Source: Eledone cirrhosa (lineage: Eukaryota). Taken from it: a stretch of DNA of 64,000 nucleotides. The notes beneath the pieces are model-generated. The model ran no database searches. It saw only the letters and a list, made by a program, of their open reading frames with translations, and was not told the DNA's origin. The translations under genes and the position numbers were made by a program. The stretch is from contig OZ024759.1 of assembly GCA_964016885.1 (NCBI GenBank), forward strand, positions 7,316,001-7,380,000, read 5' to 3'. Below, in pieces: positions 8,700 to 26,078 of this stretch. Every line of letters starts with the position of its first letter. Position 1 is the stretch's first letter.

Positions 8700-9140
8700 T
8701 GCAAAAGTTTTATTTAAAATTGTTGGGTTACAACAAGTAAATATTTTATAACTGATATAAAGCACTCAACAAGTTTTGGAGTAAATATACGATATTAAAC
8801 AAATGGAAACTATATTTATAAAACCATATTTATTTCATTATACATATTTCAGGGATACCATATTAAAAATATGGCATGCCTTCTTCAGATAAAATACAAT
8901 ATATAAGCAGTTTTATAAATAAATTTGACGTACCATAAATATTGATCAACTTTTATACCAAACCAACTTTTTACATAAAAGTTGATCAATATTTATGGTA
9001 CGTCAAATTTATTTATAAAACTGCTTATATATTGTATTTTATCTGAAGAAGGCATGCCATATTTTTAATATGGTATCCCTGAAATATGTATAATGAAATA
9101 AATATGGTTTTATAAATATAGTTTCCATTTGTTTAATATC
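8700..9140. mobile_element. Fold-back hammerhead-bearing element, family A (Penelope-like non-autonomous element)
   Basis: 166-bp inverted arms 8791-8956 / 8975-9140 plus a ~90-bp extra tail on the left; (TA)n on both sides; hammerhead core in each arm; relatives at 19183, 22346, 22857, 34815 and 50513. Confidence 0.75.
9037..9097 (+). ncRNA. Minimal type-I hammerhead ribozyme, family A (mirror copy at 8834-8894 on -)
   Basis: CTGAAGA (9043-9049), stem II AGG-c-ATGCCATA...TATGGTAT-c-CCT, GAAA (9081-9084), then TATGTA. Confidence 0.75.
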
Positions 9141-9538
9141 ATATATATATATATATATATATATATATATATATATATATATATATATATATATATATAT
9201 ACAAACATAAATTATCGAGATTCGCATTTCGGCCCACGAAATAACGAAAAACCATCCTCCGGGATGTGCGGCAAGTGCTCAATGATTCAGATGAACCAGA
9301 GCTATAACAAACGTTAAAGGCCAACACACTGAGACGATGGTTAAACAATCATTCGCATAACGAAAAAAAACGATCAAGTAATTCGGGTATTGAAAATTTA
9401 CCCGGACCCCTGGAAGGTTGGTAAAATCCAGTATTTGGGTTTCTGCGGCTCCTAAATCAAGTACCGTCCGCTTACATATATAATGTCAGGCTTTTGGTAA
9501 GATGATTGAACAAGGAAGCCACTTTATATATATATATA

Positions 9539-9745
9539 TTACTAATTATATCTAAATGTTTCTTCTCTCTTCATAATGTATTTTTAACTCTGATACTGGT
9601 TCAGTCTGGTTCAACTGAATTGGTCTGTCCCAGTCATTCATTGAGCAACATCGGTGAAGTTGGCACCCTTAACTCACAGTTGGGTGCGGATGCATTCATG
9701 TATATATGTGTGTGTCCGCATGTATCTGTGTGTTTCTAAATATAT
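9539..9745 (+). mobile_element. Terminal fragment of the 591-bp family D element
   Basis: Reverse complement of ~17478-17686; ends at TTCTAAATATA and runs into (TA)n, as does the copy at 18206-18322. Confidence 0.85.
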
Positions 9746-10014
9746 TATATATATATATATATATATATATATATATATATATATATATATATATATATAT
9801 ATATATACACGTATATATATATATATACATACATATATATATATATATATATATATATATATATATATATATATATATATATATATATATATTTTGAGTT
9901 TATGTTGTTTTCCCCAGTGAATTAACAACGCAACAAGGAACTGGGCATATCAGAGTAATGACAATATCATACACCTAAACAACATATGTACTTGTCTATA
10001 CCATACTAATTCAA

Positions 10015-10069
10015 ACTGCCTGAAGAGGTCACAGCCAAAGATGGCTGTCACTGAAATATATATAGCAGT
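10015..10069 (+). ncRNA. Minimal type-I hammerhead ribozyme (family E)
   Basis: ACTGC-CTGAAGA-GGT-c-ACAGCCA-aaga-TGGCTGT-c-ACT-GAAA-TATATA-TA-GCAGT; perfect 5-bp helix I; predicted cleavage after 10064. Confidence 0.85.
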
Positions 10070-10855
10070 AATAAACGAAGCTAAATTTTAATCATTTGAC
10101 TTTTATTTAACTTTATTTTATATATATATATATATTTATATATATATATATATATATATATATATATATATATACACACGTATATATATATATATATATA
10201 TATATATTTCGTTTCTGAATTTGTTTAGCAAGATTCTTTATCTGAAAACGTGTGTTGAAACCGATATTGTTATACTTTGGGAGGGTCATGTTGGGTCATA
10301 CATGTATATATACATATATACACATGTATACATATATATATACACGTATATATATAGACACGTATATATATAGACACGTATATATATGTATATATATAGA
10401 CACGTATATATATATATATATATATATATATATATATATACACGTATATATATATATATATATATATACGTGTATATATATATATGTATATATATACACG
10501 TATATATATATACATATATATAAATACATGTATATATTATATGTATATATATATATGTATATATATATATATATATATACATTATATATATATATATATA
10601 TATATATATATATATATACATTATATATATATATATATATATATATATACAGTATATATATATATATATATATATATATATATACAGTATATATATATAT
10701 ATATATATATATATATATATATATATATACATATATACATATATATATATATATATATATACATATATACATGTATATATATATACATGTATATATATAT
10801 ACATATATATATATATACATGTATATATATATATATATACATATATATATATATA

Positions 10856-24272: not shown

Positions 24273-25049
24273 TATATATATATATGAATATATATATATA
24301 CATATGTATATATATATATTCATATATGTATATATATATGTATATATATATATATTCATATATATATATGATTACTTCACTAATAATTATTTTATAAATA
24401 GTTGTTCCGTAATTAATTAATTATTTCATTAGTATACCATCCCTTGTGAAACACGTTTATGTTTTGAAGTTCCGACCGATCTGCTGAAAAGGTTTGAATT
24501 TTGAAATTTAAACTTGTCTAGGCACCAGGCAGTAGCCATTTTACGTCTGTAAGTATAGATTTAATATTTAATATTTTCTGGATCGATACAGGTGGACTAT
24601 ATGTACTTGAATTAAGGTATTTCTATCTGGCTAAAAAATTATTGTCATTTTGCAAAAAAAAAAACACATTAGTGTTGATCATATTTTTTAAATTGTACTA
24701 TATATATATATATATATATATATATATATATATATATATATGAATATATATATATATATATATTTATATATATATATATATGAATATATATATATATATA
24801 TGAATATATATATATATATATATTTATATATATATATATATATATGAATATATATATATATATATTTATATATATATATATATATATATATATATATATA
24901 TATATATATATATATGTAGATAAATCTACCAAGAGTTTACGGTAGTGTCCAATCCGTATGAAGAACTCAATGTATTCCGGATATCATGGAAAGAAGAGAT
25001 GTAATGAAAAAACACTTTCGGTGAAAGATAAACGGTATACAGAGTCAAG

Positions 25050-25165
25050 ATAAAATATTAAACAAATAATGAATAAACAATTCCTTATATTAAACAAAAA
25101 AAGTTCATGAACTTTTTTTGTTTAATATAAGGAATTGTTTATTCATTATTTGTTTAATATTTTAT
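25050..25165. repeat. 116-bp perfect palindrome abutting (TA)n
   Basis: Centre GTTCA|TGAAC at 25107/25108. Confidence 0.93.
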
Positions 25166-25494
25166 ATATATATATATATATATATGTGTATATATATATA
25201 TATATATATATATATATATATATATATATATATATATATATGTGTGTATATATATATATATATATATATATATGTGTATATATATATATATATATATATA
25301 TATATTCATATATATATATATATATATATATATATATATGTGTGTATATATATATATATATATATATATGTGTATATATATATATATATATATATATATA
25401 TATATGTGTATATATATATATATATATATATATATGAATATGAATATATATATATATATATATATATGAATATGTATATATATATATATATATA

Positions 25495-25690
25495 TTTTAA
25501 TATAGATGAGATTCTACAGGACTAGAACTGTTTCATTCTTTAGAAATCATCAGGAATCTGATGATTTCTAAAGAATGAAACAGTTCTAGTCCTGTAGAAT
25601 CTCATCTATATTAAAACTTTTATACTCTGCAATGTATTGAGTACCTTACTTACTGTGGTTACCTCCGATTCAACCCGGAATAACGTAAAT
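25495..25690. mobile_element. Family B fold-back element with back-to-back hammerhead cores
   Basis: 59-bp arms 25495-25553 / 25558-25616; CTGATGA-T-TTCT-aa-AGAA-T-GAAA-CAGTTCTAG-TC on both strands; tail 25617-25690. Confidence 0.75.
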
Positions 25691-25756
25691 ATATATATAT
25701 ATATATATATATATATATATATATATATATATATATATATATATATACATATATAT

Positions 25757-26078
25757 AATATAAGATCAAAAGATGGTTAAAGGAGTTCCATATATTTTAT
25801 TATGCGCATTTCAAAAACAAACATCATCAAGCAATAATATTTGTGTTTTCATCAGATAAAAAGGCTAAAAAACACTTGTTGATAGTGCAGTTTTAAATCA
25901 ACATATTATTATTGCTTGATGATGTTTGTTTTTGAAATGCGCATAATAAAATATATGAAACTCCTTTAACCATCTTTTGATCTTATATTATGCATACTCC
26001 AGTCCCACAAACTGTAGAGTGCTTCTTATCCGATATCTGCATTGCTTTATTGTACTACAATAAAACTCACCTCCTACA
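25757..26078. mobile_element. Family C fold-back element; hammerhead at 25795-25859 (-)
   Basis: Arms ~25760-25838 / 25908-25987; minus strand TTAT-CTGATGA-AAA-c-ACAAATATTATT...GATGATGTTTGT-t-TTT-GAAA-TGCGCA-TAA. Confidence 0.7.

Follow-up and report, generated by a model that had tools for sequence, protein, structure and literature searches.

Reverse transcriptases (RTs) of Penelope-like elements (PLEs) form the sister group of telomerase and begin copying inside their own RNA. How such an enzyme chooses its starting point, and why PLE insertions carry a tail on one side only, are questions raised by a 64,000-nucleotide (nt) stretch of the Eledone cirrhosa genome (assembly GCA_964016885.1, contig OZ024759.1, positions 7,316,001 to 7,380,000; hereafter the window, numbered from its first letter). 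This AT-rich, animal-type DNA (35.5% GC) holds 11 head-to-head fold-backs, which are 5'-truncated ends of (TA)n-inserted PLEs, together with a partial tandem, family D. By eye, 9 of the 11 fold-backs pair one long arm with one short arm. The fold-backs and their tail are in themselves ordinary and known; what appears to be new is a conserved, duplicated bulged hairpin. Since copies end a few nt before this hairpin, it probably tells the enzyme where to begin copying.

A bulged hairpin shared by eight families

An earlier note on this DNA had described a TACTC..GAGTRC stem downstream of the ribozyme in families A, B and C. In line with that description, the strict pattern TACTC-N6-24-GAGTRC gave eight matches in 64 kb when both strands were searched, all of them in hammerhead sense and in hammerhead-bearing elements, with type I hammerheads upstream:

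Family A, five matches: 23080 (+), 8783 (-), 22430 (-), 34900 (-), 50601 (-)
Family B, two matches: 21494 (+), 25623 (+)
Family C, one match: 25995 (+)

The stem is a bulged hairpin, consisting of R-CTC, an upper stem variable in sequence and length, a 2-nt, U-led bulge on the 3' side, and GAG-Y, and it is present in eight families of the window (A-E, I, K and M). Its ACTC form accounts for 18 matches, namely 13 sense copies in A, B, C, D and E, four antisense mirrors in A and one in a new family, M. As published elements suggested a GCTC form, this was also allowed and added five matches: K (6-bp upper stem), I (7 bp), one within a long interspersed element (LINE) and two composites. In the TA-flanked segments (7,797 nt) there are 15 matches with an upper stem of at least 3 bp, including one composite that spans the two B arms; 200 shuffles gave a mean of 0.36 and a maximum of 2. 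LINE, short interspersed element (SINE) and other DNA (26,744 nt) gave one match against 2.1 expected. The motif thus occurs in the TA-flanked segments beyond chance.

The pairing is kept while the letters change. Across nine motifs the first upper pair is U-A in five, C-G in three and G-C in one, and the third is A-U in one subfamily of A and G-C in the other. In a 12-row alignment 98.6% of cells are paired, with two-sided changes at four of seven pairs, and slid registers pair at 17-54%. CTC, GAG and the U of the bulge hardly vary, if at all; the first pair of the lower stem is A-U in five of the eight families, an A-C mismatch in D, and G-C in K and I. End position and the first GAG-Y suffice to define six of the motifs (A, B, C, both copies in D, and E), and all six have the bulge U as well as upper pairs 1 and 2. 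A covariance model run over the window found no additional family, and scored the first D motif and E at just E 3-5. Most tails are predicted to contain a second hairpin further downstream, which is not conserved, and a (TA)4 run lies 43-70 nt past the stem in those A, B and C copies where a run follows.

Copies end just before the hairpin

End positions were taken from local alignment to the longer copy with mismatches allowed. Of 13 distinct (TA)n-joined ends, 12 fall at -1 to 5 nt on the 5' side of ACTC. They share 1-9 alternating bases with the TA run, and just 3 nt in C and E. The short ends at 9140, 19438, 22820, 22857, 25495, 25757 and 34997, which the earlier note had named as stopping just before the stem, all do so, entering (TA)n at -1 to 4 nt ahead of it, or at most 8 nt ahead when matched exactly by eye. 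Family J, about 70% like I, enters (TA)n about 7 nt ahead of the site of I's motif, a case checked after the motif was known. Two arms depart from the pattern, namely the left arm at 19183 (family A), which is cut ahead of the hammerhead, and the right arm of I (16809). Tail lengths in the window families are about 70-165 nt, above the 30-40 nt in print.

The elements as Penelope-like elements

With their hammerheads, 5'-truncated arms set head to head, (TA)n targets and an extension on one side, these insertions fit the published pattern of endonuclease-positive (EN+) PLEs, which comprises truncated inverted arms, partial tandems and a one-sided tail (Craig et al. 2021, PMC8557442); the one-sided tail is also described in PMC11167929. 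We therefore assign the elements to PLEs, and the analogy that the earlier note drew to the Penelope pseudo-long terminal repeat (pLTR) tail can be put more strongly in that the tail is present and is an actual PLE tail, not an analogue. A type I hammerhead lies in sense orientation in the 3' pLTR of families A, B, C, D, F and G, and its 3' half alone in M and I. A descriptor search of the window copies found no hammerhead in E and no intact one in K. The hammerhead lies upstream of the stem, at 49-60 nt in the measured A and C copies and 86 nt in D. Rfam returned no hammerhead among the 150 of 211 matches listed, which were mostly microsatellite-driven microRNA noise.

The clade is most likely Hydra, judging from sequence features. 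Hydra elements are EN+ PLEs that target (TA)n and bear canonical hammerheads, with one Octopus family among them (PMC8557442), and the clade is recognised by these two features, by protein marks (RWK, DKT, CxCX5C, no CCHH) and by RT phylogeny. The window families are inserted in (TA)n, which is not diagnostic since Naiad and Neptune do the same, and have canonical hammerheads, with B and F nearest in layout to File S2 (by eye); stem III of the B hammerhead (acag..ctgt-a) is also on record for several Hydra elements. Naiad membership was rejected, as Naiad lack a canonical hammerhead whereas A, B, C, F and G have one. A Helitron-type 3' hairpin was also set aside, since the hammerheads and head-to-head arms point to PLEs. 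No PLE open reading frame (ORF; RT plus GIY-YIG endonuclease) was found in the window, its long ORFs being LINE-like or microsatellite, and a Pfam scan of 55 of 134 short frames gave nothing at the cut-off.

The earlier note had called the families unrelated. A, B, C and D indeed show no mutual alignment at BLAST level; however, the second A subfamily and C have 15 nt in common around the hammerhead core, and this identity, with a single hammerhead layout throughout, makes common descent likely.

Family D carries the hairpin twice

Family D is the sole family with sequence visible past its long end. Its insertion is a non-coding partial tandem in minus sense with a 591-nt period (555 of 558 positions identical) and one hammerhead per unit (17132- and 17723-):

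17052..18312: D insertion, retrozyme-like; tandem ends short at ~17052, inverted arm ends long at ~18312
9530..9745 (+): D single copy, long-ended
9587..9648 (+): D motif 1 (ACTC / 3 bp plus long insert / TT / GAGC), homologue of the A, B and C stem
17575..17637 (-): D motif 1, lying 5 nt past the short end, which corresponds to window position 17643
17454..17472 (-): D motif 2 (ACTC / 2 bp / TC / GAGC), lying 5 nt past the long end at 17478
18045..18063 (-): D motif 2 in the other copy of the tandem
17718..17805 and ~17127-17214 (-): D type I hammerheads, U3-A8 core variant
9663..9687 (+): GCACCC..GGGTGC hairpin in the D tail, not a homologue

Short end and long end thus each lie 5 nt before a copy of the motif, and the second copy, being beyond the long end on its 3' side, is not part of the copied DNA. 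The GCACCC..GGGTGC stem, which the earlier note had taken for D's compensatory version, exists but sits about 85 nt past the short end; the true homologue is ACTC..TT GAGC.

The D unit is present in 20 runs from 16 studies, with no RNA run listed among them; four of the runs were aligned, of which two Hi-C runs (5 and 3 reads) and run X10 (18 contigs) were uninformative. In run X1 (1,647 contigs aligned), (TA)n-joined loose ends fall at 17643 (11 contigs) and 17478 (4 contigs), among those listed. Summed depth in X1, which is not copy number, drops in the sense direction from 567,369 to 163,916 and from 536,197 to 125,755 across the two D ends. The internal TATATAT run of D is not used as an end, either in three window ends or among the loose ends listed.

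Judged by its sequence, D fits the definition of a non-LTR retrozyme (non-coding tandem, one type I hammerhead per unit), like the animal retrozymes described in PMC7229834 and bioRxiv 10.64898/2026.07.22.740005, the latter of which treats non-LTR retrozymes as non-autonomous PLEs; in the parts covered, neither text contains a cis-signal for mobilisation. D differs from the described retrozymes in its PLE-type short and long ends and inverted arm, which fit target-primed copying of a linear tandem RNA. The U3-A8 core (TTGATAA) occurs with intact stems I-III in a young tandem, and a CUGANGA search would miss it. About 35 nt past D motif 2, a frame at 17293-17440 (-) translates to LESFHYSY, which by eye bears a faint likeness to the F-x-Y-S with which Hydra ORFs in print begin, and is possibly a decayed ORF start.

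The hairpin in published relatives

We compared by eye the six Hydra-clade consensus sequences of File S7 (PMC8557442), and found the motif in three of them, from coral and sea cucumber, with a compensatory G-C pair. In Hydra-2_Amil the hairpin (GCTC, 6-bp upper stem, TT bulge, GAGC) lies 43 nt past the hammerhead cut, and in Hydra-2_Ajap (GCTC, 4 bp, TA, GAGC) 38 nt past it. Hydra-1_Ajap ends 46 nt past the cut and opens with two copies 61 nt apart (5 bp with TA; 4 bp with TC), both just upstream of the ORF and the first 2 nt from the consensus start, from which we infer a short end 2 nt before the first copy if the consensus was cut at a tandem junction. The Hydra termini (1,800 nt) hold four matches of at least 4 bp, against about 0.03 expected at the window's background rate. 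The comparison with autonomous PLE 3' ends suggested by the earlier note was thus borne out in half of the consensuses, the motif going unseen in Hydra-1_Obim and Hydra-1_Amil. Hydra-clade EN+ PLEs and the window families are alike in (TA)n targets, a canonical hammerhead near the 3' end and a similar layout, and differ in that the window families lack an ORF, their hammerheads are unlike that of Hydra-1_Obim, and the lower pair is G-C in the published copies, A-U in five window families and A-C in D. The hairpin is undescribed in the parts of Craig et al. covered, and we found no description elsewhere in a literature search whose scope excluded most subscription journals and Repbase reports, so that an earlier description is possible. 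In File S5 of the same supplement one Naiad 3' region has a well-formed hairpin (6 bp, TT), among the 15 of 22 octamer matches listed, which may reflect either chance or wider conservation; by eye, the motif was not seen in cephalopod Naiad 3' ends.

A biochemical comparison is offered by the Poseidon element PAc from Anolis carolinensis (Frangieh et al. 2024, PMC11167929). Its protein is a predicted dimer that cuts and extends both strands in vitro, where reverse transcription starts at two internal sites bounding the tail and requires RNA as far as +172, some 55 nt downstream of the later start; in the parts covered, the required RNA is narrowed to a region and no motif is named. PAc and the window elements resemble each other in two starts (putative ones in the window) flanking a one-sided tail, a hammerhead upstream and, in PAc, a need for RNA 3' of the starts. 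In PAc, however, the start lies in an AC-rich stem-loop and the tail is 30-40 nt, whereas the window elements have AU-rich putative starts, tails of about 70-165 nt and a sequence-conserved bulged hairpin after each putative start. The Penelope elements of Adineta vaga (Arkhipova et al. 2013, PMC3846280) likewise have head-to-head truncated arms, a palindromic centre and an optional one-sided tail; they differ in a 31-nt tail, and the words 'stem' and 'hairpin' are absent from the main text.

Outside contigs were also searched. The tail pattern of family A had no match in viral, prokaryote or metagenome contigs, and five hammerhead-pattern searches gave 120, 2, 80, 6 and 2 loci. The strict descriptor was passed by none of the 88 loci in the last three sets and by none of 80 viral loci. 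The 80 metagenome loci are PLE-like ends of a different, minimal-hammerhead type, with BLAST matches to the window families confined to TA/CA-repeat stretches of D and F. Among minimal-hammerhead metagenome ends, 2 of 37 have a weak 2-bp motif and the covariance model gave one match (E 3.6); the motif is therefore no general feature of hammerhead PLE ends. Two of these contigs (L140 and L171), which are different minimal-hammerhead PLE-like ends, have a tail motif of their own in common, CGATGC..GAATG..AAA. In L140 it lies about 8 nt past the short end, a hint that start signals may be particular to each PLE clade.

A model for the start of copying, and its rivals

We slightly favour a reading in which the PLE protein would bind the bulged hairpin in RNA and prime just 5' of it, the tail being the stretch between two starts. 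The element RNA would carry the hairpin twice, downstream of the hammerhead; the protein would bind one hairpin and nick a (TA)n target; and target-primed reverse transcription would begin in the AU-rich linker 0-8 nt 5' of the hairpin, assisted by a few bases of TA overlap. A start ahead of hairpin 1 would give a short arm and a start ahead of hairpin 2 a long arm, whose tail would for that reason contain hairpin 1. The elements are then best read as truncated PLE ends plus one non-autonomous tandem unit, D. A further step, which we offer tentatively and rate as possible though rather doubtful, is that a dimeric Hydra-clade protein binds two hairpins on one RNA, its subunits priming 5' of each on opposite (TA)n strands. 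The earlier note's proposal of an RT/endonuclease signal gains from the covariation and the published Hydra-clade copies, and has to be altered in its placement, since the putative signal is not 3'-terminal and sits just 3' of the end-point.

Several observations weigh against this proposal. Family F has a one-sided tail without the motif, the right arm of I (16809) stops inside a poor look-alike far upstream of I's motif, and, among the consensuses compared by eye, Hydra-1_Crog has two imperfect look-alikes and Hydra-1_Obim and Hydra-1_Amil none that we could see. At -0.9 to -5.6 kcal/mol the short-loop hairpins are weak, and they form about as well on one strand as on the other; minimum-energy folds in longer context missed the hairpin in B, D and one A copy; and D motif 2 has a 2-bp upper stem, an A-C mismatch and a lower-stem pair probability of 0.42. 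As M, K and I were chosen on pairing, the pair counts and the 12-row covariation are inflated; five of the 12 rows are family A, and the shuffle control ignores relatedness. The X1 data have no pile-up of molecule ends and 84 loose ends outside those listed, and X1 may be the window's own source. No ORF in the window ties the families to Hydra directly, so that the clade assignment is a probable one.

That the strands fold about equally also suits a hairpin acting in DNA, where the GIY-YIG endonuclease would recognise a single-stranded or cruciform form in cDNA or donor, cut just 5' of it and so resolve an intermediate. Craig et al. ascribe the tail to endonuclease-mediated resolution (PMC8557442), and earlier work cited in PMC11167929 reportedly found the D. 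virilis tail to be required for endonuclease recognition. The tail boundaries nevertheless map onto RT start sites in vitro (PMC11167929), and ends that spread over several nt with 1-9 bases of (TA)n overlap suit priming better than a fixed cut, so that we regard a DNA-level role as unlikely. The same TA overlap at short arms halting right before the stem could alternatively mark a road-block, with the second arm arising by fold-back copying of the first cDNA, stalling at the hairpin and jumping to (TA)n by micro-homology. This would account for the pairing of long and short arms and agrees with the reading of palindromic centres as self-priming (PMC3846280); yet J, and probably G and G2, are short-ended copies that lack an inverted partner; in D it is the inverted arm that has the long end, which also abuts a motif copy, and the main tandem arm that has the short one; and a weak hairpin with invariant CTC, GAG and bulge U argues for specific recognition over mere stability. 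We hold a road-block to be quite unlikely.

Lastly, the motif might have been inherited as part of the pLTR and serve some other purpose (as a promoter, in translation, or in folding of the ribozyme at the next unit's 5' end) or none, the AU-rich linker simply resembling (TA)n. The tail does double as the 5' leader of the next tandem unit, Hydra-1_Ajap has its copies just upstream of the ORF, (TA)n junction overlaps are common and F has a tail without the motif. Ends nevertheless hug the motif across families with different linkers, including C and E with their 3-nt overlap, and D leaves its internal TATATAT run unused as an end, and we consider this explanation improbable. Priming just 5' of an RNA hairpin remains the reading that we prefer.

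Other families and features of the window

The remaining copies and motifs are as follows:

8701..9140: family A fold-back; minus-sense long arm on the left, short arm on the right; hammerhead cleavage sites 8839 (-) and 9092 (+)
8762..8783 (-): A bulged hairpin (ACTC / 3 bp / TT / GAGT)
9275..9302 (-): K bulged hairpin (GCTC / 6 bp / TT / GAGC), 75 nt before (TA)n; element ~9207-9515
~15960-16559: family I element; decayed hammerhead 3' half at 16193
16002..16030 (-): I bulged hairpin (GCTC / 7 bp / TG / GAGC), 55 nt before (TA)n
19183..19438: family A fold-back; left arm truncated ahead of the hammerhead, right arm with a short end
21428..21680: family B, two arms tail-to-tail, long in + sense and short in - sense; motif 21494-21515 (+); hammerhead cleavage 21598 (-)
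22346..22820: family A long arm and short arm, SINE copy between them; motif 22408-22430 (-)
22857..23156: family A fold-back; short arm left, long arm right; motif 23080-23102 (+)
24185..24210 (-): M bulged hairpin (ACTC / 4 bp / TT / GAGT), 26 nt past the hammerhead 3' half at 24236 and 51 nt ahead of (TA)n; whole element 24142-24270
24373..24695 (+): family J element, homologous to I
24918..25153: family E fold-back; long arm left, short arm right; copy without hammerhead
24963-25045 (-): E motif, 5-bp upper stem with long insert
25495..25690: family B fold-back; motif 25623-25644 (+); hammerhead cleavage 25515 (-)
25757..26078: family C fold-back; motif 25995-26022 (+); hammerhead cleavage 25801 (-)
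29075..29700: family F fold-back; hammerhead 29471 (+); one-sided tail of ~65 nt, no motif (counter-example)
34816..34997: family A (subfamily 2) fold-back; motif 34878-34900 (-)
50516..50741 (-): family A (subfamily 2) long-ended single arm; motif 50578-50601

Family F (29075-29700) combines a Hydra-format hammerhead with TA-rich sequence in its interior and a one-sided tail whose strong hairpin is a different one. Beside its long end is a 105-nt direct repeat (28444-28548 and 28970-29074, 526 nt apart), possibly another pLTR-type tandem, in which neither hammerhead nor motif was found. G (9898-10111, +) and G2 (18949-19060, -) are tailless hammerhead ends that enter (TA)n about 45-55 nt past the cut, and are predicted to be short-ended copies of further families. 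Element H (35035-35165, +) resembles Poseidon in its hammerhead core (GAAACGTC), has an ACTC-4 nt-GAGC that lacks both bulge and upper stem, and is probably from another PLE clade.

The window also has long (TA)n runs, LINE ORFs and a SINE. SINE copies occupy the centre of one A fold-back (22445-22800) and lie directly against the long end of another A copy (49786-50513), where two of them form an inverted pair. Two near-intact LINE ORFs, which we take to be RTE-like, lie inverted at 30581-34237 and 36685-40324 (1105 and 1163 amino acids stop to stop, 96% identical).

Implications

The insertion pattern and the tail were already known, and it is to the choice of the RT start and the one-sidedness of the tail that a covarying hairpin after each end-point offers a candidate motif. 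The hairpin also serves as a non-coding marker for placing truncated copies and retrozymes in a PLE clade. If the dimer rule is true, it would explain both the PLE tail and the mixed pairing of short and long arms seen here, and the hairpin would be a portable start signal, kept from cnidarians to molluscs and echinoderms and also licensing retrozymes for mobilisation.

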